Positions 14,020-29,076 of a DNA stretch of 32,000 bases are shown here, one piece after another. How positions within the stretch are numbered: the stretch's first letter is position 1; every line of letters starts with the position of its first letter. The notes below the pieces were generated by a model. That model did no database searches. It saw only the letters and a program-made list of their open reading frames with translations, and was not told the origin of the DNA. The position numbers and the translations under genes were made by a program. Source of the DNA: Nitrosopumilus sp. (lineage in GTDB: Archaea > Thermoproteota > Nitrososphaeria > Nitrososphaerales > Nitrosopumilaceae); the NCBI GenBank assembly GCA_963662625.1, contig OY759726.1, positions 1,537,446 to 1,569,445 on the forward strand, given 5' to 3'.

Positions 14020-15135
14020 CTAGGATATCTGGCTGCGGAGCTTCTTCGTGATCGTCGCCTCCACGTCGTCGAAGAGGCCCAGCATCTTCTCCTTGTTCTC
14101 GACCAGGTAGTCCCTGCCGCGGTCCTTCAGCCTGATCTTCCACAGCCTGATCTCCCTGTGCTCGTCGAAGAACTGCTCGATCATCTGCTCGCCGGACCTC
14201 TTGGGCTCGATGAACTCGTCGAAGACCTCGATCGTCTTGTCCACGTCCTCCTCGGAGATGGCCTCCTTGACGGACTGGATCGCGTGGCTTATCTCCTTGA
14301 GGTTCTTGACGGGGGCCGGCAGCCTCTTCCGGGTGATCCCGAACAGGCCCTTCTTCTCCTTGCCGATCTTCTCGGCCACGTCGGGGGCCAGGTCGTACAC
14401 GGGGATCTTGCTCAGGCCGTCGCGCTTCTCGTTCTTCACGATCAGCCCCTTCTCGAGCAGCTTGTTCAGGGACCTGTCCACGTCTGCCTTGTCCAGGAAC
14501 GTGGTCCACACTATCGAGCCGATGCTGTGGTAGCCCTGCCTGACGGACTCCAGCACGACCACCTCCACTATCCTCTTGAAGCCCTCCTCGATCCTCACGT
14601 TTACAAAGTCCTTGTCCCTGATCGACTTCCTCGCGTTCTTCACGTCGATCTCTATGGAGCGCTTGAGCGCCTCGAGGGCCTCGGGCACCTGGTTGAGCAG
14701 CGACAGGTAGCAGGCCTTGTTGTACCACGCCATCCCGTAGGTCGGGTCCGACTCTATGGCCTTCTCCACTGCGTTGAGCGCCTTGGAGTGGTTCTTCTGC
14801 TCGTAGTGGACCAGGCCCTTGAGGTTCCAGGCCTCCGGGTTGGTCACGTCGATGTCGAGTATCCTGTCGTACACCTTCAGCGCGTCGTTGTGCTCGTCCA
14901 GGTGGAACCTCGCGTACCCCAGCTTCATCAGGGTCTCCACGCTGTCCGGGTCTATCCTCAGGGCCTGCTCGAAGACGGCCACCGCCTCCTCGAGCTTCTC
15001 GTCGGCCATGAGGTTGATGCCCTTCTTGAACAGCTTCTTGCGGTTATAGTCCGAGTCGACCAGGGACCGCTCTTCCTTCCCCCCCGCGGGCTCGGCCCCG
15101 GGTTCCTTTGGTTTTCTCTGAAACGGCTTCCTCAC
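14020..15135 (-). CDS. TPR-repeat protein with a central winged-helix-like segment
   Basis: 371-aa ORF, GTG start. The N-terminal half has about 4 TPR-like units (AVAVFEQALRIDPDSVETLMKLGYARF, ALKVYDRILDIDVTNPEAWNLKGLVHY, ALNAVEKAIESDPTYGMAWYNKACYL, ALEALKRSIEID). The middle reads ..RSLNKLLEKGLIVKNEKRDGLSKIPVYDL (wHTH-like). Confidence 0.8.
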   Translation of the reverse strand: MRKPFQRKPKEPGAEPAGGKEERSLVDSDYNRKKLFKKGINLMADEKLEEAVAVFEQALRIDPDSVETLMKLGYARFHLDEHNDALKVYDRILDIDVTNPEAWNLKGLVHYEQKNHSKALNAVEKAIESDPTYGMAWYNKACYLSLLNQVPEALEALKRSIEIDVKNARKSIRDKDFVNVRIEEGFKRIVEVVVLESVRQGYHSIGSIVWTTFLDKADVDRSLNKLLEKGLIVKNEKRDGLSKIPVYDLAPDVAEKIGKEKKGLFGITRKRLPAPVKNLKEISHAIQSVKEAISEEDVDKTIEVFDEFIEPKRSGEQMIEQFFDEHREIRLWKIRLKDRGRDYLVENKEKMLGLFDDVEATITKKLRSQIS

Positions 15136-15251: not shown

Positions 15252-17345
15252 TTGAAAATACAGAAATACCTGAAATTTGCATACATGCTTATGTCCTCGC
15301 CACAGCTGCGCGTCAGGGGGCCGGCCCCGTCCAGAAAGTCCGGCGTATACGAGGTGGAGATCGCCCTTGCGGGCTCCAGGCCGTCAGACGGCGCCATAAA
15401 AGCCAAGGGCTTCCGGCCCCTGTGGAAGGGTTCGTTCCACCTGCGCGTGAGCGACGGGACGTTCTCCGAGGTCCTCGGGTCAGGCGACAACCCGATCCCG
15501 CCTTCCGTCGGGCAGGCGCCGGAGGTCTGGGTGGTGGTGTCAGACGTCCTTTCCCCGGCATATTCCGTTTTCAGCGCGCCGACGGGCGCCAAGCCAAAGC
15601 CCGGGCCTGCAGGCGGGCAGGATGGGCGGGATCGGCCCCCCGCCGCGGAGGTGCGCCCGCCGGAGCAGGAACGGCCGGCACCGCCGCCCCCCGCCGCGGA
15701 GGTGCGCCCGCCGGAGCAGGAACGGCCGGCACCGCCGCCCCCCGCCGCGGAGGTGCGCCCGCCGGAGCAGGAACGGCCGGCACCGCCGCCCCCCGCCGCG
15801 GAGGCGCGCCCGCCGGAGCAGGAACGGCCGGCACCGCCGCCCCCCGCCGCGGAGGCGCGCCCGCCGGCGGAAGAGCAGGCGCCTGCCCCCAAGCGCGCCC
15901 AGGAAGGCGCCGGCGAGGGGCCGCCGAGGCGGCAGTCCGGGCGCGCCACAAAGGCAGTCTCAGACGGTGCCGCGCGCCAGGGCGAGAAGGGCCTGGCAGG
16001 AGAACAGGGCCCGCCGGGCGACCGCGGCCCCACGGGCCAGCCCGGACTGCAGGGCGCGCCGGGCCCCAAGGGCTCCCCCGGCCCGCAGGGGCCGCCGGGC
16101 GACCGCGGCCCCGCGGGCCACCCGGGAATGCAGGGCCAGCAGGGCCCCAAGGGCCAGCCTGGAGAGCAGGGCCCTCCCGGGGACCGGGGATCGGTGGGGG
16201 AGCGCGGGCCGTCCGGCGACAAGGGAGCCCCGGGCCCCACCGGGATTACCGGCGACAAGGGGGACAAGGGGGACAAGGGCCTGACCGGCCCGCCCGGAGA
16301 CAAGGGGGACAAGGGACTCCACGGCGCGCCCGGAGACAAGGGGGACAAGGGGATCACCGGCCCCCCGGGAGAGAAGGGCCAGCAGGGCCCGAGGGGCCCG
16401 CCCGGCGACAAGGGGATGACGGGCGCCCCGGGAGACAAGGGCCCGGCCGGCGACCGGGGGCCGGCGGGGGAGAAGGGCCCCACGGGACATGCCGGAGTCC
16501 AGGGCGAGAAGGGCATATCGGGCAAGCCCGGCCCGCAGGGCGAGAAGGGCAACCAGGGCCCCCCCGGCGACAAGGGCCACGCGGGCATGCAGGGCCCCCC
16601 CGGCGACAAGGGGCCGGCGGGAGCCAAGGGCCCCCCCGGCGACAAGGGAATGCGCGGCCCGCAGGGCCAGGTCGGTGAAAAGGGATCCAAGGGCCAGGAG
16701 GGCCCGGTGGGAGAGAAGGGCCCGCAGGGACTGCAGGGGCCCGCCGGCGAGAAGGGCCTGACCGGGGTACCCGGCCCGCAGGGCGAGAAGGGCCCGCAGG
16801 GGTCGCAGGGGCCCGCCGGCGAGAAGGGCCTGACCGGGGTGCCCGGCCCGCAGGGCGAGAAGGGCCCGCAGGGGTCGCAGGGGCCCGCCGGCGAGAAGGG
16901 CCTGACCGGGGTCCCGGGACCTTCCGGCGGGAAGGGCGAGACGGGGCCGGTGGGCCCGCCAGGAAGCAAGGGCCCCGCAGGCCAGGTCGGGCCCGCGGGG
17001 GACAAGGGGCCCAAGGGCCCGGCCGGCCCGCAGGGCGAGCGGGGCCCGGCCGGCCCGGCAGGAGAGAAGGGCCCGCAGGGCCCGCAGGGGATCCAGGGCC
17101 CGCAGGGCGAGCGCGGCCCGGTGGGCCCGGCCGGCCCCGCGGGGGAGCAGGGCCTGCAGGGAAACCAGGGCCCGGTGGGCCCGGCGGGGCCCAGGGGGCC
17201 GCCCGGGCCGCCCGGCGAGAAGGGCGCGGGCGGGGGGATGCCCGCGGAGCAGAAGGCGCTGCTCAAGGACCTGCTGGAGATTCTCACCGACAAGAACGTC
17301 ATCACGACGGAGGAGCAGATCAAGCTCATGAGCAACCTGTACTAG
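15252..17345 (+). CDS. Collagen-like triple-helix-repeat protein (N-terminal unique domain, Pro-rich 17-aa repeats, 139 G-X-Y triplets, short helical C-terminal tail)
   Basis: 697-aa ORF (TTG 15252; alternative ATG 15285). Hand-checked uninterrupted G-X-Y run from 15981 to 17231 ([19 protein letters not shown]...[12 protein letters not shown]), rich in GEK/GDK/GER/GDR and GPP/GPQ triplets. C-terminus is [35 protein letters not shown]. No obvious signal peptide or TM segment. Confidence 0.9.
15636..15866 (+). repeat. 51-bp tandem repeat, about 4.5 copies, encoding PPAAE(V/A)[11 protein letters not shown]
   Basis: Exact 51-bp periodicity: ccgccgcgga recurs at 15640 and 15691, and so on. Copies 1-3 carry GTG (Val) and copies 4-5 carry GCG (Ala). 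The last copy decays into [10 protein letters not shown]. Confidence 0.9.
16713..16921 (+). repeat. 72-bp tandem repeat, about 2.9 copies, inside the collagen domain ([24 protein letters not shown])
   Basis: ccgccggcgagaagggcctgaccgggg recurs at 16741, 16813 and 16885. The copies differ almost only at a Val wobble position (gta/gtg/gtc). Confidence 0.9.
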
Positions 17346-18771: not shown

Positions 18772-19170
18772 GTCGTCCTCTCCGTATTCGTTTTCCCGTG
18801 CGGTATTATTTTTTTTGATTGCCGCGGCCTTCCCAGGAGCGCCCAGCTGGTGCCCCGGCGGGGGTTCCCGCGGCACCCCGCAGCCAAACACGCGTGACGT
18901 GGCGCCTGGCGCGGAGCGCAGAACCCGTGATCCTGCGCACGAAACCGGCCTTGCCTGCAAGCCAGCGCGGGCATGCGGGGCCCAGTGTCATGCACCCGTT
19001 CGCCACAATGCGCCGGATCGCAACGCATCGCCCAAGGACGCGCGCATCGTTCCTGTGCCTGGCGCGCGCAGGCTCCCTCCGGCAGAGCCCGCCGTACCGT
19101 TCCGTTACGTGCATGTTCGCCGCCACGCAGAGCTTCCGGCCCCGCCGGCCAGCCCCAGCCGTTACGGGAC

Positions 19171-19278
19171 GCGCAGCTGCCGTATTGCCGCACCAGCCAT
19201 GTGGCCCGTCCACCAGGCTCTGAATCTGGGGTGCTATCCTAATGCGCAGCTGCCGTATTGCCGCACCAGCCATGTGGC
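19171..19278 (+). repeat. Two identical 35-bp direct repeats (gcgcagctgccgtattgccgcaccagccatgtggc) separated by 38 bp
   Basis: Copies at 19171-19205 and 19244-19278 are identical by inspection. They lie in a roughly 700-bp GC-rich stretch (18.83-19.56 kb) with no convincing ORF. No third copy: at 19316 only a 10-nt core (ccgcaccagc) recurs. Confidence 0.85.
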
Positions 19279-19507
19279 AGCATGCCGCCCCGGGAATGGC
19301 CTTGGACGCCACGTCCCGCACCAGCTCGTCACAGGGGCGTCCGCGCCCCGCAGTGCCGCTTATCCCCTTGGCCGATCTGGCGCATCACGTCACCTGGCTG
19401 CCGTAGGCGGCAGCTGGGATCTGGCCGCGGCGGTTGGAACGATGCCCGGATCCGGCGCGGACAGGCGCCTCGGATGGGAGATCCGTCCGGCAGCCGCGCA
19501 ATCCCGC

Positions 19508-21125
19508 TTACGTCAAAAGCAGGAATGCCGAGGCCGGGACTACGTATTCCTGCCTTGTCTCTAGGCGTGACTTTGAGATAACCAGCCCGCTTTTGGCGCC
19601 GGTCTTGCCAAGGAAGCTGGCCAGCCCTGCCATCTCCCTGGGGTTGATCCTCCCCCTGTATTTCACCTCGATTGGGACCTCCATGCCGTTTACTTTAGAC
19701 AGGACAAAGTCCACCTCCCTTTTTTTTCGTCCTTCCAGTAGAATACGTGGTTGGAATGGTCAAATGTCTGTTTTTTGTCACTCAGTGCAAAGGCCCACCC
19801 GTTCAGGTGATCTGCCATGATGCCCTCCACGATCTTGCCCCGGTTGCCCTCATCGTGGACGTATTCCAAGCTGGCATCAAAGCTGCCATCCGTGCTTATC
19901 AGGCCATTGAATATGTGCAAAAAATAGGGGTCGCTAAAGTAGATTTTTCTGTCGCTTCTCGCCATCGGTATTTTCCTGCCCCCGCCATACCTGCAAATGG
20001 TTGACAAGACAAACAAGTCCTTTAGGGCATGCGCATAACCAAGAGCTGTGTTTGGGCTACCCAGATCTGCCTCTTTGGAAAGGTTATTCCACGACGTATG
20101 GCTTCCCTGGCTTTTGATTACGGCCCCGCAAAACTGCTTTAGCATAGTCTCGCTTTTTGAAAGTGCGTTCCATTCGCCTGTAATCCCCTCCAAATGACTC
20201 GTATACAGGCTTTCGCCTATGGCAGGTGCCTTGATCTTTTCGTCTACCACCCTTGGAGTTCCCCCGGCCAGCATGTATTCTTCCAAGAGTCCGCCTAGTT
20301 CATTTTGGCATGCGCAAAAGGTGTCCAAGGTCTCGCCAATTTCCCCGCTCAGCAGTTTCATGAATATGTCCTTTCTGTGATCCAAGGCAGGCACGTGATT
20401 TTCCATAACTAAATCATTGATGTCGCTACTCGCCACCGATGCATACTCTGCAAACTTCATCGGGAGTAAAATCTTGTCGTAATTGTCGGCAACCCTGCCC
20501 CTGCGGCCTGGCAGTCTTTCTGCGGCATTTCTTATGTTGATTGCCTGTGATCCAGTGGCCATGACTGTGCAATTTTTTAACTTGTCGCCGTCAATTAGCC
20601 ACTTGATGCCTTTCTGCCATTCAGGCACTGATGAAACCCACCCAAGAATAGGCAGCAACGATTATCCTTGCGCTGCCTGGAACTTATTCTCAGGTAGGTT
20701 TCAATAACATCAACCACGTCCTGCCGCGTACTGGCTAGATCCAGTGCATAGTATAGAACGTTCCACGGAGAGACATTCTTGTCCAACAAATCCCCTATCT
20801 GCAATTTAACCAGAGTTGTTTTGCCTACTTGCCTTGGGCCACGAAGTGAATACACCACAGTATTGGAGGGTTCAAAATCAAAAGTAACATTGTGTTTGAG
20901 CCTGGGAATGTATCTTATTGCCGAGTCTCCCCATCCCTTGATTTTCGGGTCATTTTTTATGCTTGCAGGATCTTTCCACCAAGGATTCGAATCCCGTACT
21001 TCCTTTCTCGAGTCATATTTATGTTGACTGAAAGGTTCTTTATATATTGGGCACAAAACCACTGAAATGTCCTTTATATATTGGTCGCGAACCCACTGAA
21101 AGGTCCTTTGTATAATACGGCCCAA
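19508..21125 (-). pseudogene. AAA+ ATPase of the archaeal AAA_14/DUF4143 (COG1373-like) type, disrupted by at least 2 frameshifts
   Basis: Three consecutive ORFs (20595..21125, 19690..20658, 19508..19714) together reproduce the family layout: NPWW N-terminus, Walker A GPRQVGKTTL, then ..SSVPEWQKGIKWLIDG.., TGSQAINI, LPMKFAEY, ..KIYFSDPYFL.., and a C-terminal nuclease-like EVDFVL..PIEVKY. Shift 1 (about 20635-20645) falls where Walker B is expected, and the sequence there reads LFLGG instead of hhhhDE. Shift 2 is in the A8 run (T8 on the plus strand, 19720-19727). No clean in-frame start follows the last TATA-like box. Confidence 0.8.
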
Positions 21126-21128
21126 GCG
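21027..21128. repeat. 34-bp tandem repeat x3, each unit carrying a TATA-like box, at the 5' end of the ATPase pseudogene
   Basis: Units are 21027-21060 actgaaaggttctttatatattgggcacaaaacc, 21061-21094 actgaaatgtcctttatatattggtcgcgaaccc (29/34 identical to unit 1), and 21095-21128 actgaaaggtcctttgtataatacggcccaagcg (more diverged). The period is not a multiple of 3. Confidence 0.85.
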
Positions 21129-21233
21129 TCCAGCGCCAGTCCAGTGGACACGACTGGCGCAAGATCGGCCCCGACATCCTTTCGCCCTGCAGTACTTGTT
21201 CGGGGCGCATCCGGCACCTTGGCTGATCCCTTT

Positions 21234-21944
21234 TCACGGCCAAGACCTGCGTGGGTTTGCAATACGTATGCCCCGAGAAGGGTTCCAGCACCCGCGGATT
21301 CCCCGGCCGGCCATCACCGGCACTCGCCCTGACTGTTTTGCCACATCTCGGGTTGTTCTCTGGTGCTTCTGAATGCTGCCAACTGACCTGCGTGGGAGCC
21401 GGCGGCCTTTCCCAAACTGTAGCATACGCAAGAGCCCCGCAAGCAGGTTGGTTGGCAGATCTAGCCATGAACTGGACTTGAGTGATGCCACAAGCCGCTT
21501 AAAACTGGCGTAGCCTTGCAGTTTTTCGCAGTCCAGCCTTTCTGCATATCTGGGCAACTGGTTCTTTGTGTAGTTCTTATGGTGCCTTAGGGCGTCTGAT
21601 GGTTTCTGGTCACCAAACCGGATGCCTTCTGAATGGCATATCCATTCTTCTATCTCGTGGTCCAGCAGTACCACTTTGACGAACTCTTTATCCTCGTCTT
21701 TAACATGTTTGAGCACTTTCTTCATCTTCTCTTCAAGGCTTTCGCCATCCGCATCCGCAATCACTATGGCCCGATCCACCTTTCCCACGTTTGCGCTAAT
21801 CATCCTGCCCATCTTGCTTCCTATTGGACAGCGAATAACGCGTTCCAGCCTGCCGCCAAGAACCCCCTCGGAATTCTTTTTATGGAAAAACCTTGGAAAA
21901 AACACCTGGCCAAAGCAGTCTTCTACCAGAAAACAGAGTTTCAT
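21234..21944 (-). CDS. Small TOPRIM-like protein (DUF4276/RloB/AriB-like by motif pattern), partner of the upstream ATPase; C-terminal ~80 codons probably non-native read-through
   Basis: ATG 21944 overlaps the ATPase stop (ATGA). The N-terminal strand plus acidic residue MKLCFLVED, the DxD motif in AIVIADADGES, and later LLDHEIEEW follow the E...DxD TOPRIM order. AT-rich coding composition ends near 21480 (..FKRLVASLKSSS). The ORF then runs on in GC-rich sequence with Arg/Gly-rich, non-protein-like translation to 21234. Confidence 0.6.
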   Translation of the reverse strand: MKLCFLVEDCFGQVFFPRFFHKKNSEGVLGGRLERVIRCPIGSKMGRMISANVGKVDRAIVIADADGESLEEKMKKVLKHVKDEDKEFVKVVLLDHEIEEWICHSEGIRFGDQKPSDALRHHKNYTKNQLPRYAERLDCEKLQGYASFKRLVASLKSSSWLDLPTNLLAGLLRMLQFGKGRRLPRRSVGSIQKHQRTTRDVAKQSGRVPVMAGRGIRGCWNPSRGIRIANPRRSWP

Positions 21945-23248
21945 AACTCACCATACAGCCACGATTCGCTAGCAGTAATGCCCTTGCTTTGTAATTCTTT
22001 TCTCAGTTCGCCTGGATTTTCAACCTTGCGGCATGTGCTTTCCTCCTTGTTCGTTTCCAACAGAACCAAGTCGCCAATATCGACATAATCTACGACAAGT
22101 GGCGAATGACTCGTGACTATCACGGTGGATTCTGTGTTTTTTAACAAATCCACAACGTATTCTATAATCCTCGCGTGCAGTGATGTCTCTATCTCGTCAA
22201 TCAGAATAATCCTTGGTTTCAGTTCAATGGCTGCAAGAATTGCCAGTAACTTGTAAAACCCATCGGGTATGGAGGTTGGGGCAAGTGTCATCGTGCCCAC
22301 ATTTACTTCCATTATTATGTTTCCCTCTTGAGTAATTTGGAATGATATCTGCCAGTTGGGAAACAACGCTTCAAGTGCAAGTGTGAAGATATCAGGAAGC
22401 TTACGTTTTTCGTTAAACCATTTGAACAACAAGTTTACCAAACCGTCTCCGTCCTCATCTAGCTCGTCAGAATAGTTGACGGGAGTTGATTTACGCAGGT
22501 AATCATAGTTTAATTGCCTTAGCAGGATGATGTTTCGTGGATCAACCAGATAGCTTGCAGCTAGCGCATACAGTGATCTAGCAATCCTGTTATTTTTGAT
22601 GGGGGGTGACGGAAAACTGTACACTTTCAGCTCGTCGCCATCAAACATGCCAGCTCGTAGCAGAAAAATGGCAGTTTTCCCCATGCGTTCGTGCCACTTT
22701 GTGGCGTTGAGAATAGACACGTCGCTGTCATTATGTGGCACCGTGAAGCCTTTTTCCAAATCAATCGAATCCCTCTCCAGTATTCGCCTAAGCCGTGTTT
22801 TTTCGCCAACGGAGTTGACTTCCTTGATGATGGGAGGCTTGAAGTGATAGCCGACCTTGTTAACATCAAGCGCCACGTCTAGGTAATCTTCAATCTGTAT
22901 TCTCTCTTCGAGTATCCCCAACCGGCCGTTGTTTGAGCCCGTTACCGTAAAGTCATAAATGACGTTGCGGCCGTCCACAACATAACTGATCTGCGAGTGG
23001 ATCGTCTCGGATTCGTCACCTCTCCACACTATGTTTCGGTACCCTCCCCAGTCCGCAAAAGGATATGCGGGAGTCTTTTGCGGCGACACGCATAAATTCA
23101 CAAATTTAATCAGCTCAAGCACGTTTGTCTTGCCGGACCCGTTTGGCCCAATCAGCACGTTGAATTGCTTGAGCGGGATCTCGAAATCCTTCAGGCTCTT
23201 GAACCTTTTAACCTTGATCTTGGTGAGCGTCTCCATATTGACAAGCAT
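21941..23248 (-). CDS. ABC-type (AAA_21/AAA_15-like, SMC/RecF-fold) ATPase
   Basis: 435-aa ORF. Motifs: KRFKSLKDFEIPLKQFNVLIGPNGSGKTNVLE (Walker A), signature-like SIPDGFYKLLAILAAIE, Walker B RIILIDEIETSLH, H-loop VIVTSHSP. A TATA-like element (catttatattg on the coding strand) lies about 20-25 bp upstream of the ATG. Markedly AT-rich relative to the core genes. Confidence 0.85.
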   Translation of the reverse strand: MLVNMETLTKIKVKRFKSLKDFEIPLKQFNVLIGPNGSGKTNVLELIKFVNLCVSPQKTPAYPFADWGGYRNIVWRGDESETIHSQISYVVDGRNVIYDFTVTGSNNGRLGILEERIQIEDYLDVALDVNKVGYHFKPPIIKEVNSVGEKTRLRRILERDSIDLEKGFTVPHNDSDVSILNATKWHERMGKTAIFLLRAGMFDGDELKVYSFPSPPIKNNRIARSLYALAASYLVDPRNIILLRQLNYDYLRKSTPVNYSDELDEDGDGLVNLLFKWFNEKRKLPDIFTLALEALFPNWQISFQITQEGNIIMEVNVGTMTLAPTSIPDGFYKLLAILAAIELKPRIILIDEIETSLHARIIEYVVDLLKNTESTVIVTSHSPLVVDYVDIGDLVLLETNKEESTCRKVENPGELRKELQSKGITASESWLYGEL

Positions 23249-23480
23249 CCTGATCTGTTTTCAATATAAATGGAAAACGTCGTTGCCGGCGTTGTAAAGT
23301 TTTGTTGATATAAAAAACGCCAGCGTTGCCGGACCGCGCCGTCCGGCAGGCCGGCCGTGTGCCCGGAAGCCGAGTCCGTGTGCGTGTGCAGGCTGCCGGG
23401 GCCGGACGGGGTTGGCAGCCGCGCGCGGGGCCGCCCGCAGTCATTAAATACCGGCGCGCGCCACTTAACCCATGCCAAGC

Positions 23481-23620: not shown

Positions 23621-25513
23621 TCACATCCTGTCCGGGGCGGATATGCCGAGCAGGCCCAGCGCCCCCCCGAGCGTGGCCCTGAACGACCCCACCAGGAACA
23701 GCCTGGCGTCCTCCAGCTGCGCGTCGCCGGCCCCCAGGACGCGGACCCCCTCGTAGAACTCGTTGAACGAGACGGCCAGGCCGTGGCAGTACCTGGCAAT
23801 GACCTTGGGCGACAGGTTCCTCGCGGCGTCGCCCACGTGCATGCCGAACATCCCTATGCCCCTGACCAGCCCCAGCTCCGCGGGTTCGGCCAGCAGGGCA
23901 AAGTCGGCGTCCTCCGGGGGCGCGCGGCCGGCCTTTTCCATGATGCGGGCCGCCCTCGCGTTGGCGTACTGCATGTACGACGCGGTGTCCCCCTCGAGGC
24001 TCAGCGACCTGGCCAGGTCGAACGTGATCACCTTGTCGAGGTCCTGCCTCACCATCTCGTAGCGCAGGGTCCCGACGGACACCTGGTGGGCTATCTCCTC
24101 CACCTCCGCGCCGCCCATCCCCGGGTGGCGCCCCGCGGTCTCCTCGGCGGTCCTGCCCTTCAGCAGGTCGTAGACGGAGTCGGCGTTGACGTACAGGCCC
24201 TTCCTGCCGGACATCTGCGCCTGCCTCCCCCGCGTGTCCAGCCCCAGGGTCCTGGCGGTGTCGGGGCTGAGGGTGACCGACTCGTAGCCCAGGTGGACGT
24301 ACGCGCCGCCCGGCCTGAACCTGGACATCAGGTCTGCGATGATCTTCTGGAGGCGCGCCTGCCTGGAGTCTATCACGGTGATCACCCTGTCGCCAGAAAA
24401 GCGCGTCGCGCCCCCGCCGGGCCCGCCGCCCCCGCCGAGCGTGGTCTGCCACAGCGCGCGGCCCCCGGGCTGCCCGCGCTCGTACGGGGCGTACCCGAAC
24501 GGGTCGTCCAGGACGCCCATCTTCCACGCCGCGTACGGGATGTCCTTTGCGATGTACGTGGCGGTGCCGTTGCTCCGGACTATCACCTTGTCCTCCTCGC
24601 CGTCCCGGCCGCGGATCACCCAGCACCCGGCGTTCTTGCCGCCCTCCTCCAGCTCCGCCAGGCCCATCCCCTTTAGCCTCTCGAAGACGCCGCGCCACAG
24701 CCCGGAGCGGACTATCTGCGACTCGAAGTTGAGGCAGTCGTACGTCACGCCGAGGTTCCAGCACGTCTCCAGCTGGCACGCCAGGACCCTCCCCGTCACC
24801 CTGCCTGCGAACCGCGCGGTCTCGGACCCCCCGTCCTCGATCTCCTTGAGGGTGTCCTTCCTGACTGCCTCCAGGCCCGGGTCCTCCACGTACCTCGCGG
24901 ACGTCCGGACGTAGACGTCGTCGCCGCAGTAGTGGTCGAACTTCTTCCCGTCCGGGGGCTCCTCGGGGAACCCCAGGTGCCTGAAGCCGATCACGATGTC
25001 GGCCACCTGCAGCCCCGAGTCGTCGACGTAGTTCAGGACCTTCACCCTGTAGTTGGCCTTCCGCAGGATCCTGGCCACGGTGTCCCCCACCACGATGTTC
25101 CTGACGTGGCCTATGTGGAGGGCCTTGTTGGGGTTGACGCTGGTGTGCTCCACCACCACGGGTGAGCCGCCCCCCAGGTCGACGTCCCCGAACCCGTCGA
25201 GGCGAGACCCCCGCAGGATCAGCCCGCAGAGCCTGCCCCAGTCGGCCCGAAAGTTGACATAGCCCGAGTCGTGCGGCTCGGCCCCCGCCACCAGGGGGCC
25301 GGCGCGCCCGCGGTACCTGGCCGCGATCTCCCGGGCCACCTCCCCGGGGCCCTTCCCGAGGCGCTTGGCCAGCAGGAACGCCGCGTTGCAGCTCGCGTCG
25401 CCGAACCCCGGCCTCGAGGGCGACACCGAGAAGCCGGCGTCCCCGGCCCCCATGCCTGCCAGGACCTCCCTGACGCCGCCCTCGATCTCGTCGAGGAACG
25501 CCTGGAACGTCAC
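23621..25513 (-). CDS. argS: Arginyl-tRNA synthetase
   Basis: Real gene is the C-terminal 630 aa of track ORF 23621..26002. GTG start at 25513 (VTFQAFLDEIEGG..) overlaps the stop of the upstream HAD gene (GTGA). Class I HIGH motif (NPNKALHIGHVRN), MSGRKG (KMSKS-equivalent), anticodon-binding DALR-type C-terminus (..ARYCHGLAVSFNEFYE..), terminal M. Confidence 0.93.
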   Translation of the reverse strand: MTFQAFLDEIEGGVREVLAGMGAGDAGFSVSPSRPGFGDASCNAAFLLAKRLGKGPGEVAREIAARYRGRAGPLVAGAEPHDSGYVNFRADWGRLCGLILRGSRLDGFGDVDLGGGSPVVVEHTSVNPNKALHIGHVRNIVVGDTVARILRKANYRVKVLNYVDDSGLQVADIVIGFRHLGFPEEPPDGKKFDHYCGDDVYVRTSARYVEDPGLEAVRKDTLKEIEDGGSETARFAGRVTGRVLACQLETCWNLGVTYDCLNFESQIVRSGLWRGVFERLKGMGLAELEEGGKNAGCWVIRGRDGEEDKVIVRSNGTATYIAKDIPYAAWKMGVLDDPFGYAPYERGQPGGRALWQTTLGGGGGPGGGATRFSGDRVITVIDSRQARLQKIIADLMSRFRPGGAYVHLGYESVTLSPDTARTLGLDTRGRQAQMSGRKGLYVNADSVYDLLKGRTAEETAGRHPGMGGAEVEEIAHQVSVGTLRYEMVRQDLDKVITFDLARSLSLEGDTASYMQYANARAARIMEKAGRAPPEDADFALLAEPAELGLVRGIGMFGMHVGDAARNLSPKVIARYCHGLAVSFNEFYEGVRVLGAGDAQLEDARLFLVGSFRATLGGALGLLGISAPDRM

Positions 25514-26208
25514 CCCCTGCCGCCCCCGAGCGACGGCGCCAGCTCGTCGAGCGCCTCGAGCACCCCGTCCCCCGCGCCGGCGGAGACTGCCATGGTGGCC
25601 TCGGACCGCACCCCGCCTGGCGCGTTTCCCAGGGCCACGCTGGTGCCCGCCGCCCTGAACAGCGGGACGTCCGTGGCGCTGTCCCCGATGGCGATGACGT
25701 CCTCCTCCCGTATGGACATCCTCCCCATCAGCTCCCTGAGGCCCGCCCCCTTGTCTATCCCGCGCGAGTTGATGTGGTACGCGTACCGGCTGTCGGACAG
25801 CGCGACGTCCAGGCCCCTCTCCCGGGCCAGGTCCCGGGCCAGGTCCAGGTCGAACGTGCGCTGCAGCACGACCTCGGTCATCCTGGGGAACACCGGCTTC
25901 TCGACGACCCCGTCGATCCCGGCCCGGATGATCTCCAGCGCGTCCCTGCACTCCTTCATGTCGCCGAGCAGGACGTGCTCGTTGGCGCCCAGCGTGATGC
26001 ACCCGCCGTTCTCGCCCACGGCGGCCTTGGTCGTGCCCCCGAAGACGGACAGCAGGAACCCCTCGACCGACGACCGCCCCGTGACGAAGATCACGTTGTG
26101 CCCCGAGTCGGCCAGGTGGCGCAGCGCGGCCAGCGCCCCCAGGTGGATGCGCCCCCCGCCGTTCTCCGTGATCGTCCCGTCGATGTCCACCGCGAACGTC
26201 TTTGCCAT
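25510..26208 (-). CDS. HAD-IIB hydrolase (archaeal phosphoglycolate phosphatase/Cof-like)
   Basis: MAKTFAVDIDGTIT (motif I DxDGT), VIFVTGRS (motif II), K in RGIDKGAG, AIGDSATDVPLF (motif IV). ATG 26208 is preferred over 26247 because a TATA-like box (aaatattatt on the coding strand, about 26229-26240) lies between them. Confidence 0.8.
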   Translation of the reverse strand: MAKTFAVDIDGTITENGGGRIHLGALAALRHLADSGHNVIFVTGRSSVEGFLLSVFGGTTKAAVGENGGCITLGANEHVLLGDMKECRDALEIIRAGIDGVVEKPVFPRMTEVVLQRTFDLDLARDLARERGLDVALSDSRYAYHINSRGIDKGAGLRELMGRMSIREEDVIAIGDSATDVPLFRAAGTSVALGNAPGGVRSEATMAVSAGAGDGVLEALDELAPSLGGGRG

Positions 26209-26403
26209 GATCCGGTACCCAGGAGCCGAATAATATTTGCTACGCATGCCGCCGGCAGCGTGCGCCAGGCGGGCGCGGCGCCGCCCCGGCGCAAACCCAG
26301 ATCCCAGTTGGATTCATGCCTACTGGGGCAACGGCCACGCTGATTTTGTGCCTATGGCGCCATGGGATCTGAGCATGCACGTAGGGCCTACCCATTAAAT
26401 TTT

Positions 26404-27363
26404 TTAAGCGTTACTTGGTTGAGGCGGTCCGACATAATCGGCGACGAATTTTTCAACTTCTGCGAGGTGGCTTAAACAGAACACGCGGCCGTTGCCTGGG
26501 ACATCATAAAACTGCTCCTGCCTGTCAGAAGTAAAATACATTAATTTATCGTATGGGATATTTGCCGCTTGCAAATTTTTGATTTTGCGATTAATTACTT
26601 CAAGAATGTTAGAGCTGTCTCCCTGCTTGGTGACTTCTGCAAGAATTAAGCGTTTATCTGTAGTTACGGCGATCACATCAATTTCTAAACCGGGTCGAAT
26701 TTCGCCGTTTTCGTACATTTGAATTTTTTTATGAACATATATCTTTTCAATAAAATCTAATTTTGCTAACGCAAACCCAATGAACACTTCATAAATCCAA
26801 CTGCTGTCAAAAACTAATAGCCCTTCTAATATCTTGGGATAATTAACATCGATTTTATGTATAACGCCCTTGCCTCCGCACAGCTTACATTCAGAAATCA
26901 AGTCCAATTTCTGAATACGGGACACCTGGTAGCTAAACGGCAGTTGGTTATGTTCGTACCAGCAATCAAGGCACTTGGATTCGATAGATAAAGTAACATG
27001 TTTGGCTAACTTACCCAGCGCCGTCGAAATTTGTTGCTTCTGATCAGGCAATTTCAAGAATTTGTTGCTCATGGAAATGGAGTTTTGTCTTGCTTTTTTG
27101 GATAAACTCGCATATTTTTCCACATCAGCTAGGATCTGATGTTCGTAGGCATATTCACTAAATGTCTGATACGTATCGGTGTTAATGTCTTCTAATTTTT
27201 GATTATCTTTCAGAGCTTTTTGAACACTATCTGTAAAATCATCAAAAGTGGACGTTCTTGATTTTAACACGCGTGAAACTTCAGAATTTGAAGATATGGT
27301 ATCAAAAGTGGCAGAAAAGATATTTTTCCATACTTCAAAAATTTCCTTTTGGTGTATGCTCAT
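26404..27363 (-). CDS. Hypothetical protein: helical N-domain + CxxC..CxxC zinc ribbon + PD-(D/E)xK nuclease-like C-domain
   Basis: AT-rich ORF. Likely ATG at 27363 (MSIHQKEIFEVW..); the track ORF extends to 27453 into GC-rich sequence. Zn ribbon: SKCLDCWYEH-x17-SECKLCGGKG. Nuclease-like order: E in SSWIYEVFIGF, D in GLEIDVIAV, ExK in LILAEVTKQ. Confidence 0.65.
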   Translation of the reverse strand: MSIHQKEIFEVWKNIFSATFDTISSNSEVSRVLKSRTSTFDDFTDSVQKALKDNQKLEDINTDTYQTFSEYAYEHQILADVEKYASLSKKARQNSISMSNKFLKLPDQKQQISTALGKLAKHVTLSIESKCLDCWYEHNQLPFSYQVSRIQKLDLISECKLCGGKGVIHKIDVNYPKILEGLLVFDSSWIYEVFIGFALAKLDFIEKIYVHKKIQMYENGEIRPGLEIDVIAVTTDKRLILAEVTKQGDSSNILEVINRKIKNLQAANIPYDKLMYFTSDRQEQFYDVPGNGRVFCLSHLAEVEKFVADYVGPPQPSNA

Positions 27364-27455
27364 TCGTTTCTCTAGAGTGACGCTCACAAATAATTTCTCC
27401 CCTGGGAGGTCGCACTGCAGAAAAGCCTGTTGATCGCCGGATCGCCGAACCATCC

Positions 27456-28454
27456 ATGGACGAGACCGACAGGAAACTACGGGACCTGACGGAGGCCATG
27501 CGCGCAGGGAGGGACGCCAGGATCCGCAACAGGACGGTGGCAGTGCGCGGGGTGCCCGGCGGATACCCCGCGAGTGACGCCGCGTACTTTGCGGACGCGG
27601 GACAGCGCACCGTCCGCCTGCGGGCGGGACGGCCCGGCGACGGCGGCGCCGGCGGCCTCCGGGACATTCCCGGCAGGGGAAGGAACCCGCGCGTCCGGTA
27701 CGGCCCCATGGGCGGGCCTGCAGGCAGGCCCGGCCGCACGGGCATGCCCGCGCCGGGGAGGCCCCGCGACGGGACGCGCCGGAAGCCCGGGCGCGCGCAC
27801 GGCCCGCGCGGCGCGCGCGGGATCACGGGGGAACCGGGGCTCTCCCCCAAGGGGCCCACGACAGGTTACGCCGCGGCCGCAGACGACGACACGGTGCGGC
27901 GGCGGCGGGCCGACGCGGCAGGCGCGGTTGCGTGCGCAAGGAGGCGCAAGACGGCGACAGTCGCGCAGGACGGGCCCGCCTCCGCCGGGACGGGAACCGA
28001 CGGCAGGAGGCTCTGGTCCCGCGCAGGGGAGGGGGCCGCCGCCGGCAGGCCCGGCAGGAGGGACAGGGCAGCCGCGTGCGGCTCCCCCGCGGCCGACGGG
28101 ACGGGGCCGGTGCGGCCGTGCGGCAGGTCCGGCGGGGACACCTTCCTGACGTACCCCAGGGAGATCCGGCGCGAGCGGGGGCGCGCGCTGGTGATAACGG
28201 GCAACGCGGGGCAGCACAGGGCGGCGGACGTGAGGGAATACCTGCGGGACCACCGAGAGATCGGGGTGCCGTGCCTTCCCACCGCCACGCCGAAGCCCAG
28301 CGCGGTCGAGGCCGTGTGGAAGGAGGCAAAGTACGGGCTGGTCACGTCAAGGCACTACGAGACGCTGGATGGACTGAAGCGTGCGGTCTCGGAGTATTTC
28401 AGGACGTGCCCGATCAGGGTGGACATCTACAAGTTCCTATACCGTTCCATCTGA
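27456..28454 (+). pseudogene. IS630-family-like transposase remnant (N-terminal HTH and C-terminal DDE_3-like tail retained, catalytic core degenerate)
   Basis: The C-terminus ..RALVITGNAGQHRAADVREYLRDHREIGVPCLPTATPKPSAVEAVWKEAKYGLVTSRHYETLDGLKRAVSEYF matches the IS630 pattern vlDNa..H....v..fl......l.fLP.ysPeLNpiE..W...K, but with D->G in the DNA motif. The N-terminus has an HTH-like segment. The middle ~170 aa is Gly/Pro/Arg low complexity with no DDE residues recognisable. The ORF is GC-rich, unlike the AT-rich DNA on both sides. Confidence 0.6.
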
Positions 28455-28477: not shown

Positions 28478-28813
28478 CTATAGTTTCTCGTTTTGTTGTT
28501 TGTAGTCAGCTCTTTCTTCCAGGCTTTGCGCAAAATTGTAAGAAGGATCTAAACAGAAAGGATAGCTCATAACAATGCCAGAAGGCCCATAACCTGTCAA
28601 GTTAGAATCGGACTCAAGAAATAAAAATTTCAGCAATATTGGATTATCTGCTACTTCGAGAACAATTTTAGAACTAATACTTTCTAAACCTTTAAACGAT
28701 TCAAAAAGAACCTCCTTTTTTGTTTTAACCACGCGTACTCTTTCATTATTTTGTAGAGTAATGTCAACTTCGGTTAAGAGGTGTGGGATGACCTTTTCAT
28801 AAGACAATGTCAT
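28478..28813 (-). CDS. Hypothetical 111-aa protein, downstream partner of the wHTH gene
   Basis: AT-rich ORF whose ATG overlaps the stop of the upstream gene (ATGA at 28810-28813). Sequence MTLSYEKVIPHLLTEVDITLQNNERVRVVKTKKEVLFESFKGLESISSKIVLEVADNPILLKFLFLESD.. matches no recognisable family. Confidence 0.55.
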   Translation of the reverse strand: MTLSYEKVIPHLLTEVDITLQNNERVRVVKTKKEVLFESFKGLESISSKIVLEVADNPILLKFLFLESDSNLTGYGPSGIVMSYPFCLDPSYNFAQSLEERADYKQQNEKL

Positions 28814-29076
28814 CTGTGAGGATTTTTAAGAATAGATTTTCCTCGTTTTGTTAAAGTCAATTTAAAATCATCGCCCTCTTCATCACTATACACCTTGTTT
28901 GATTCAATAATTTTCAGTACCAATAACTTTCTGATCTCGGTTGAAATATTATTTACATCTCCATACCTTTCAACAAGCTTAGCGTTATTAATCAGCGTGG
29001 AATATGAAACCCCATGGTCAGAAATATACTCCATAATTTGATAAGATAGCAATGGCGGCTCGCTAATTTCACTCAT
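28810..29076 (-). CDS. Small winged-helix (MarR/PadR-like) DNA-binding protein
   Basis: 88-aa AT-rich ORF. LLSYQIMEYISDHGVSYSTLINNAKL..ISTEIRKLLVLKIIES..DDFKLTLTKRGKSIL fits a helix-turn-helix plus wing pattern. An AT-rich promoter-like tract lies upstream (29077-29110). Confidence 0.6.
   Translation of the reverse strand: MSEISEPPLLSYQIMEYISDHGVSYSTLINNAKLVERYGDVNNISTEIRKLLVLKIIESNKVYSDEEGDDFKLTLTKRGKSILKNPHR

Follow-up and report, generated by a model that had tools for sequence, protein, structure and literature searches.

A probable mobile cassette of an ABC-type ATPase and a minimal Toprim-like protein on an AT-rich island of a Nitrosopumilaceae-like archaeon

The 32,000-nucleotide (nt) stretch of archaeal DNA analysed here (the window; all coordinates are counted in it) carries on its minus strand two overlapping genes, encoding an ABC-type ATPase and a small Toprim-like partner. 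An earlier note on this DNA had proposed that they are a horizontally acquired, OLD/PARIS/AbiL-like defence module. Both genes lie on an island whose GC content is 0.485, compared with 0.655 in the remaining window, and the pair alone falls to 0.465, which bears out the description of AT-rich genes in GC-rich surroundings. The features of the pair and of its island are the following:

19500..23300, no strand: AT-rich island, defined by composition, on which the pair lies together with another, degraded candidate for defence
23263-23270, minus strand: TATA-like octamer TTTATATT, 27 nt upstream of the ATG at 23236
21941..23236, minus strand: ABC-type (AAA_15/AAA_21) ATPase gene, 431 amino acids from the annotated ATG at 23236
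23123-23149, minus strand: Walker A, GPNGSGKTN, read in the sequence
22175-22207, minus strand: Walker B/D-loop, ILIDEIETSLH, read in the sequence
22100-22114, minus strand: H-loop, TSHSP, read in the sequence
21941..21944, minus strand: ATGA start/stop overlap, the partner start lying within the ATPase stop
21468..21944, minus strand: conserved part (codons 1-159) of the Toprim-like partner gene, DUF4276/RloB-related
21918-21923, minus strand: E8 D9 of the partner, E8 following strand 2-7 of the model
21747-21755, minus strand: D64-A-D66, at the end of strand 58-64 of the model
21645-21656, minus strand: E97-I-E99-E100 of the partner
21465..21467, minus strand: lost stop, codon 160 being TGG, with TGA in the closest homologue (locus L001)
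21234..21464, minus strand: read-through tail, codons 161-236 and stop, about 0.60 GC, without homologue

The Walker A, Walker B and H-loop motifs reported in the earlier note are found where it placed them. The open reading frame (ORF) of 435 amino acids that it described also exists (21941..23248, minus strand) and starts at an alternative in-frame ATG, at 23248. However, the public annotation (P0156) starts the gene at the second ATG, at 23236, and the N-termini of homologues agree with this choice; a product of 431 amino acids is therefore taken as likely. The TATA-like box seen before the pair, TTTATATT, occurs once in the window, where 0.06 chance matches are expected, and is a putative single promoter element of both genes. 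Its spacing of 27 nt from the ATG at 23236 suggests that the ATPase transcript is probably leaderless.

In Pfam, the ATPase matches AAA_21 over the full profile (3.2e-25) and AAA_15 on its N-terminal P-loop segment. Its best PADLOC match is PDC-M25A (2.5e-34), and the HEC-01A models (1.1e-28 to 1e-14), AriA (8.8e-25), AbiLi (1.5e-19) and mad3 are also matched, as are Old (6.3e-17) and GajA (3e-16), these last two matches being confined to the ATPase motifs. The best NCBIfam match is MAD3 (6.8e-23), with 81.5 bits for a cut-off of 420. The tables of the PADLOC preprint place the ATPases of HEC-01, HEC-02 and PDC-M25 in a single family (FAM_00005), with different partners (bioRxiv 10.1101/2024.01.29.577857). 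Furthermore, an alignment of 62 archaeal homologues compared by hhalign with the HEC-01A that has been tested gave a probability of 99.1% (E 1e-18) over 350 columns; by this comparison, the ATPase is homologous to HEC-01A over its full length. Its AlphaFold2 model, built with database homologues, has a mean predicted local distance difference test score (pLDDT) of 93.3 and shows an ABC ATPase whose insert is rich in beta strands and which lacks a coiled coil. Against the Protein Data Bank (PDB), Foldseek returned GajA, Thermus OLD (TsOLD) and PtuA first, then Rad50 and SMC heads, all with E-values of about 1e-11 to 1e-12. The protein departs from its family at 6 of 86 conserved columns, the family median being 5.

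The partner ORF (21234..21944, minus strand) has 236 codons, starts with MKLCFLVED and contains IADADGE, two segments that had been read earlier as the E...DxD order of Toprim nucleases. A first database search returned five relatives of 156-159 amino acids (44-61% identity), which align end to end with residues 1-159. A profile of six sequences then retrieved 202 proteins at E <= 1e-3 among 1.84 billion cluster representatives, and the full-length members are nearly all of 150-175 amino acids. The partner is a member of this family, whose proteins have about 159 residues and which is apparently archaeal. When 109 members were scanned one by one, DUF4276 of Pfam was matched by 40 (E < 0.1, best 1.4e-7), RloB by 13 (best 1.2e-8) and Toprim by 2; in PADLOC, mad4 was matched by 38, the best HEC-01B model by 31, ATPase-Toprim_I-B by 8 and AbiLii by 7. 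Ten relatives from named genomes either reach 18-24 bits against DUF4276, colinear with the profile, or do not score, the gathering threshold being 30.2. The window partner has no RloB or AbiLii match of its own. The Pfam and PADLOC scans gave no DUF4435 or AriB match for the partner or the 109 members, and Toprim_OLD matched neither the window proteins nor the partner family. DUF4276 and RloB are both assigned to the Toprim superfamily (PMC12065111).

The family was also compared by hhalign with a DUF4276/HEC-01B profile made of the tested HEC-01B of Pseudomonas agarici (supplement of bioRxiv 10.1101/2024.01.29.577857) and four bacterial homologues. This alignment covers 130 columns (E = 4.2e-4) and puts the motifs in register, E(D) with EE, DaDG with DQD and EIEEW with ELESW; since its probability is only 34%, it is supportive but not decisive alone. 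The family is not significantly similar to the lone HEC-01B sequence (E 0.15), significance being reached only with the five-sequence profile, and its profile finds nothing significant among PDB sequences, the best match being the DxD segment of a topoisomerase (E 0.26). On these comparisons, the partner reads as a minimal and divergent Toprim protein of the DUF4276/RloB branch that lies outside Pfam DUF4276 by the curated threshold.

The predicted structure tentatively points in the same direction. The AlphaFold2 model of the partner, made from the 109-sequence alignment (pLDDT 96.5; predicted template modelling score 0.90), consists of four beta-alpha units (b-a-b-a-b-a-b-a) followed by a short helical C-terminal part. 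Its first PDB match is the C-terminal Toprim region of Burkholderia OLD (6nk8, probability 0.97, E 1.4e-3), with Xanthomonas OLD and Gabija GajA near the top (template modelling (TM) score 0.50 for GajA), and among viral models the top match is an RloB-like protein (probability 1.0, TM score 0.55). Two sequence marks of Toprim domains are present, a glutamate at the end of the first strand (E8) and a DxD after the third strand (D64/D66). The most conserved positions of the family are the acidic and basic ones expected of a two-metal Toprim nuclease, and the window partner differs at none of 18 strongly conserved columns. Conservation in the family alignment is as follows:

E8: conserved in 103 of 109
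D9: conserved in 106 of 109
D64: conserved in 109 of 109
D66: D or E in 99 of 109
E99: conserved in 109 of 109
E100: E or D in 109 of 109
Y125: conserved in 108 of 109
K127: conserved in 107 of 109

OLD is a two-metal Toprim nuclease, and the set described for the Burkholderia enzyme (BpOLD) comprises E400/E404, D455xD457, E508, which lies in the helix that follows strand four, and K562, contributed by the helical domain (PMC6755086). The partner residues E8/D9, D64xD66, E99/E100 and K127 parallel this set. The Toprim-like character attributed to the small protein has thus received backing from family-level matches, profile comparison and predicted fold, and its E...DxD residues turn out to be near-invariant.

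The two genes behave as one unit. Among 26 related loci, three metagenomic and 23 from genomes, an ATPase of 419-465 amino acids with a Walker A lies directly upstream of the partner in 24; of the two others, one has no upstream room at a contig end and the other is a match clipped by a contig end, which leaves the pair unresolved there. The ATGA overlap seen in the window, which would imply translational coupling, recurs as an overlap of exactly 4 nt (ATGA or GTGA) in 20 of the 24 loci. Because gene order is kept in 24/26 loci and the same overlap in 20/24, the arrangement is more than chance, and the synteny sought between homologues of the two genes does exist across archaea. The genes are separate in all 24, never fused, and the pairwise identities of ATPases and of partners are correlated with r = 0.96, indicating parallel divergence. 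Among the 24 ATPase ORFs there is one truncated case. At L027 3192-4489, from Candidatus Methanoperedens nitroreducens Mnv1, the partner is preceded by an ORF of only 270 amino acids without Walker A, and the ATPase of this locus is thus probably truncated.

The distribution is patchy, since the genome survey, which used a pattern from a six-sequence alignment and is biased toward close relatives, found 23 loci in 185,579 species genomes, one genome having two copies. These copies, L011 and L014 (both on OZ252243.1, Nitrosopumilus sp.), are divergent and lie more than 1 Mb apart on one chromosome. The named genomes with the pair are all archaeal and include Nitrosopumilus and other Nitrosopumilaceae, which are the closest (47-57% identity), Methanoperedens, Hydrothermarchaeota and Desulfurococcales; relatives of the ATPase carry the labels Thermoplasmata, Archaeoglobaceae and Sulfolobaceae. 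GC content of the pair is below that of its flanks in 15 of 17 loci. The neighbours of these relatives include IS66, DDE_3 and IS110 transposases, ParE, UPF0175/DUF3368, AbiEii, ThsB_TIR and an HSDR_N protein; in the related loci, neither a third gene nor any mobility genes are conserved next to the two.

A different pair of an ATPase and a small protein is also found among the neighbours of relatives. At L001 17352-19304 and L004 147-2026, another AAA_15/21 ATPase (468-496 amino acids) is followed by a protein of 150-158 amino acids that is unrelated to the Toprim partner, and between the two loci this second partner is only weakly similar (E 7e-4). They may be another ATPase-effector module. 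They were considered as paralogues of the present system, and this was rejected because BLAST finds no similarity between the partners.

Comparison with described systems places the pair within a known class. Among the closest is HEC-01 (Hma-embedded candidate 01 of PADLOC), made of the ABC ATPase HEC-01A and the DUF4276 Toprim protein HEC-01B (bioRxiv 10.1101/2024.01.29.577857). Both are two-gene modules with the same order and overlapping genes, the overlap being also 4 nt in P. agarici according to the coordinates of the supplementary table, and HEC-01-type plasmid pairs of Synechocystis and Pseudanabaena are annotated as 'AAA family ATPase' and 'DUF4276 family protein'. The ATPases are homologous full-length and the partners at profile level, with E, DxD and ExE aligned (the hhalign probability being the 34% given above). 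However, the present partner is about 30 amino acids shorter (159 against 186-193) and under every curated threshold, its named relatives all come from archaea while HEC-01 systems have been described from bacteria, and the pair is standalone instead of embedded in an Hma, BREX or restriction-modification system.

In the same way, MAD3-MAD4 of the methylation-associated defence system (MADS) associate an AAA_15/21 ATPase with a following DUF4276-type protein (bioRxiv 10.1101/2023.03.30.534895; NCBIfam NF047739/NF047734), and MAD3 and MAD4 are the best NCBIfam matches of the two window proteins. The scores nevertheless stay far too low for equivalogs, with 81.5 bits for MAD3 (cut-off 420) and 15.9 for MAD4 (cut-off 160). 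Furthermore, MAD3-MAD4 are an accessory part of an eight-gene system, while the island contains only the pair and an AAA_14/DUF4143 pseudogene, without methyltransferase or MAD6-8 genes. Deletions of mad3 and mad4 weaken MADS defence (bioRxiv 10.1101/2023.03.30.534895), and AbiL and MADS3-4 have been grouped with OLD-like ABC and TOPRIM systems (PMC11464382).

AbiL, a Lactococcus abortive infection system (AbiLi ATPase and RloB-like AbiLii), is also a split ABC ATPase with a Toprim-superfamily partner; the resemblance includes the AbiLi match of the ATPase and the RloB-like best viral structural match of the partner, but the window partner itself matches neither RloB nor AbiLii, and more family members match DUF4276 than RloB. 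PARIS likewise pairs an ABC ATPase, AriA, with a Toprim nuclease, the DUF4435 protein AriB (PMC11464382). However, the matches of the window ATPase to AriA are of the generic AAA_21 type, AriB is of about 35 kDa against 18 kDa for the present partner, which has no DUF4435 match, and AriA is described with helical dimerisation or coiled-coil regions whereas the present insert is beta-rich. As for the OLD and GajA nucleases (PMC6755086), the ATPase folds like GajA and TsOLD and the top PDB matches of the partner are the BpOLD Toprim and GajA, but both domains are there in one polypeptide, while they are here in separate genes and without a Toprim_OLD match. The assignment made in the earlier note holds for the class, an ABC ATPase with a Toprim partner, but the closest relatives are HEC-01 and MAD3-4, of the DUF4276 type, and not OLD or PARIS proper.

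The setting of the pair is that of accessory DNA. The window encodes an archaeal elongation factor 2 (EF-2; TIGR00490, 718 bits though clipped by the window end), a DRG-type GTPase with a TGS domain and an arginyl-tRNA synthetase (ArgRS) that is 65-71% identical to the enzymes of Nitrosopumilus and Nitrosarchaeum. On the basis of this EF-2 and this ArgRS, the host is placed as a Nitrosopumilaceae-like (Nitrososphaerota) archaeon, of unusually high GC content. In two relatives (L033 and L034), the GTPase gene is the direct neighbour of the HAD-hydrolase/ArgRS genes and divergent from them, at a distance of about 110-125 bp, and the island is absent. In the window (23621-28454, far junction included), the HAD-ArgRS block is inverted relative to the DRG GTPase gene when compared with these Nitrosopumilaceae; the island lies at the 3' end of ArgRS and the opposite end of the block adjoins an AT-rich ORF and a transposase. 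Since L033 and L034 lack the island and the block is inverted in the window, the pair is accessory DNA at a rearranged junction. Direct repeats flanking the island were searched for and none was found, two GC-rich stretches having no similarity to each other. ARAGORN detected no tRNA gene, and Rfam no known RNA, whether at the gathering threshold over all of the window or by E-value within 20900-21600 and 18900-19600. Horizontal acquisition by an archaeon, as proposed earlier, is supported by the archaeal EF-2 and ArgRS, the low GC content of the pair and the relatives without island. The features around the pair are:

19508..21125, minus strand: frameshifted AAA_14/DUF4143 ATPase gene (PDC-S01-like) in three ORF pieces, an island neighbour outside the pair
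26404-27453: AT-rich ORF of 349 amino acids without family match, at the far junction of the inverted block
27456-28454: DDE_3 transposase, at the far junction of the inverted block

The three pieces of the pseudogene, which is downstream of the pair (20595..21125, 19690..20658 and 19508..19714), are colinear with Pfam AAA_14 and DUF4143, AAA_14 being divided over two ORFs and DUF4143 coming next. They match the PADLOC single-gene candidate PDC-S01 (1.7e-11), colinearly across the break. By these matches, the island carries at 19508-21125, besides the pair, another defence candidate, which is frameshifted.

What the data establish for the pair is its gene structure, its homologies, the predicted folds, the conservation of residues and of synteny, and a patchy, island-like distribution in archaea. 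Complex formation, nuclease activity, substrate, trigger and a role in defence are what we infer for it, and the locus is quite probably a mobile two-gene cassette of the ABC-ATPase and Toprim-nuclease class, in which a nuclease and defence role would be expected. It is a divergent archaeal addition to this class, which includes HEC-01, MAD3-4, AbiL and PARIS, and brings no new architecture or mechanism.

In the proposed mechanism, the upstream gene would provide the ATPase, of ABC type (AAA_15/21) and bearing a beta-rich insert, and the downstream gene, coupled to it by the ATGA overlap, a minimal Toprim protein of about 159 amino acids with a full two-metal acidic set and Lys127. The 4-nt overlap would fit co-translation in a fixed stoichiometry. 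By analogy with OLD, Gabija and PARIS, an oligomer of the ATPase could bind the mini-Toprim nuclease and restrain or position it. The ATPase would sense a cue associated with an invader, and ATP binding or hydrolysis would then release or license the nuclease. This enzyme, which would be Mg-dependent, could cut nucleic acid, either DNA as in OLD and GajA or tRNA as in AriB of PARIS, and the cleavage would stop the virus or abort the infection. In PARIS, the AriA ATPase assembles with the Toprim effector AriB, a viral protein is the trigger and tRNA is cleaved (PMC11464382).

Several observations weigh against this interpretation. The window partner has no relevant Pfam match, with no DUF4276 at E <= 1, and reaches no curated threshold: it scores 0.011 (15.9 bits, cut-off 160) against MAD4 of NCBIfam and 0.0074 against HEC-01B of PADLOC, where no single stretch is significant, to which the low hhalign probability of its family must be added. 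The Foldseek E-values of its model are marginal (1.4e-3) and flavodoxin-like lumazine synthases score almost equally. No relatives were found on IMG/VR viral contigs. The sole HEC-01 representative tested failed to protect E. coli from the phages with which it was challenged (bioRxiv 10.1101/2024.01.29.577857). Lastly, the window copy may be inactive, given the stop-loss tail of its partner and its decayed neighbour.

This last point concerns the end of the partner gene. The earlier note held that the native C-terminus had been replaced at about 21480; this proves incorrect, because homology to the relatives of 156-159 amino acids continues through residue 159 (nt 21468), where the native protein ends, and it is the stop codon TGA that is lost. 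The codons read TCA TGG CTA in the window and TCT TGA CTG in L001, and all six homologues compared stop at the aligned position or within a few codons, the simplest reading being a TGA to TGG stop-loss transition. This change adds 77 codons to the ORF. No partner relative extends into the tail, which has no Rfam match either, folding of 21125-21465 is no better than that of shuffles on both strands (z = -0.44 and -1.5), and the downstream region of the window has no DNA or protein similarity to the related loci. As Rfam and ARAGORN gave nothing, this GC-richer region corresponds to no known RNA or tRNA integration site.

The pair could then be a decaying remnant, arrived horizontally, now being lost and without function. 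Such a reading, which is possible but rather doubtful, would account for the lost stop codon with its read-through tail of 77 amino acids, for the adjacent PDC-S01-like gene in three ORF pieces and for the position of the island at a rearranged junction with a transposase nearby. However, both genes are full length with all their motifs, the deviations at conserved columns are 0/18 for the partner and 6/86 for the ATPase (family median 5), the ATGA overlap and the TATA-like box are intact, and a C-terminal extension need not abolish activity. Stop loss and tail aside, the window copies look healthy by their conserved columns. The two conserved domains are intact, and the activity predicted for this particular copy is uncertain because of the lost stop and the 77-residue tail.

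Less probable, and on the whole unlikely, is a selfish module of addiction or of competition between elements, in which the ATPase would restrain a toxic nuclease and the pair would stabilise the mobile island rather than act against viruses. Transposases and toxin-antitoxin genes adjoin the pair in relatives, the pair is patchily distributed and present twice in one genome, its GC content is under that of the flanks and the tested HEC-01 gave no phage protection, all of which would suit such a module. In MADS, furthermore, cells apparently survive the deletion of mad5 only when mad2 or mad3 is removed as well, which implies a toxic activity depending on MAD3. Yet no mobility genes are conserved beside the pair, and the related systems whose role is known (OLD, Gabija, PARIS, AbiL and MADS) are defence systems (PMC11464382); besides, addiction and defence are not mutually exclusive.

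A housekeeping DNA-repair pair akin to RecF-RecR, with an SMC/RecF/Rad50-like ATPase, is very improbable: SMC_N (Pfam, 3.8e-14) and RecF (7e-13) do match the ATPase, Rad50 and SMC heads are among its structural matches and RecR has a Toprim domain (Aravind 1998, cited in PMC11464382), but the two sequence matches are limited to the N-terminal P-loop segment, RecF scores 48.5 bits (cut-off 172) and SMC 27 (cut-off 729), the insert is beta-rich without coiled coil, the pair is sporadic (23 loci in 185,579 species genomes) and on variable islands, its composition is foreign to the host genome and relatives with the same housekeeping neighbours lack it. As these RecF and SMC equivalog scores are far under the cut-offs, a housekeeping RecF/RecN/SMC type is not supported, and the ATPase is homologous to HEC-01A over its full length.

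Returning to the cassette of the ABC-ATPase and Toprim class, it is tentatively conceivable, although doubtful, that the ATPase and its partner of about 159 amino acids form a distinct immune clade of ABC ATPases with mini-Toprim proteins, so far archaea-only in appearance and possibly with its own substrate or activation logic. If so, it would be among the few candidate innate defence systems of marine Thaumarchaeota and would be spread over Nitrosopumilaceae, Methanoperedens and thermophilic archaea. As the partner scores under the thresholds of the Pfam, NCBIfam and PADLOC models scanned, current family and defence models would probably miss such a clade.

Pairs of ABC ATPase and Toprim proteins are a recurrent design in prokaryotic immunity, as in OLD, Gabija, PARIS, AbiL and MADS3-4. 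To our knowledge, no phenotype has been demonstrated and no mechanism described for the DUF4276 branch (HEC-01), and experimental knowledge of antiviral defence in marine ammonia oxidisers and anaerobic methane oxidisers is scant. The present family suggests that a compact and divergent cassette circulates among these ecologically important archaea, and extends this poorly understood ABC-Toprim branch into marine ammonia-oxidising archaea. Residues for mutagenesis can be chosen directly from the alignment of the family, the confident models and the conserved positions listed above. In the window genome itself, the weight of the finding is modest, one accessory cassette with a stop-loss mutation beside a decayed neighbour.

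Other features of the window deserve mention. Just upstream of the AAA_14/DUF4143 pseudogene, 21027-21128 holds three tandem 34-nt units (the others being 82% and 71% identical to the first), each with the TATA-like CCAATATATAAAG on the minus strand; they may represent a duplicated promoter element. A GC-rich stretch of 540 nt (18960-19500), which separates the GTPase gene from the island, has no convincing gene or Rfam match and contains a perfect direct repeat of 35 nt (19171-19205 and 19244-19278, 73 nt apart). A further AT-rich islet is found at 28500-29000. Lastly, a 697-amino-acid ORF on the plus strand (15252-17345) consists mostly of collagen triple-helix (G-x-y) repeats (Pfam Collagen, 2e-66) with 9-nt periodic repeats, which is unusual for an archaeon, and is adjoined by a TPR protein (14020-15135).

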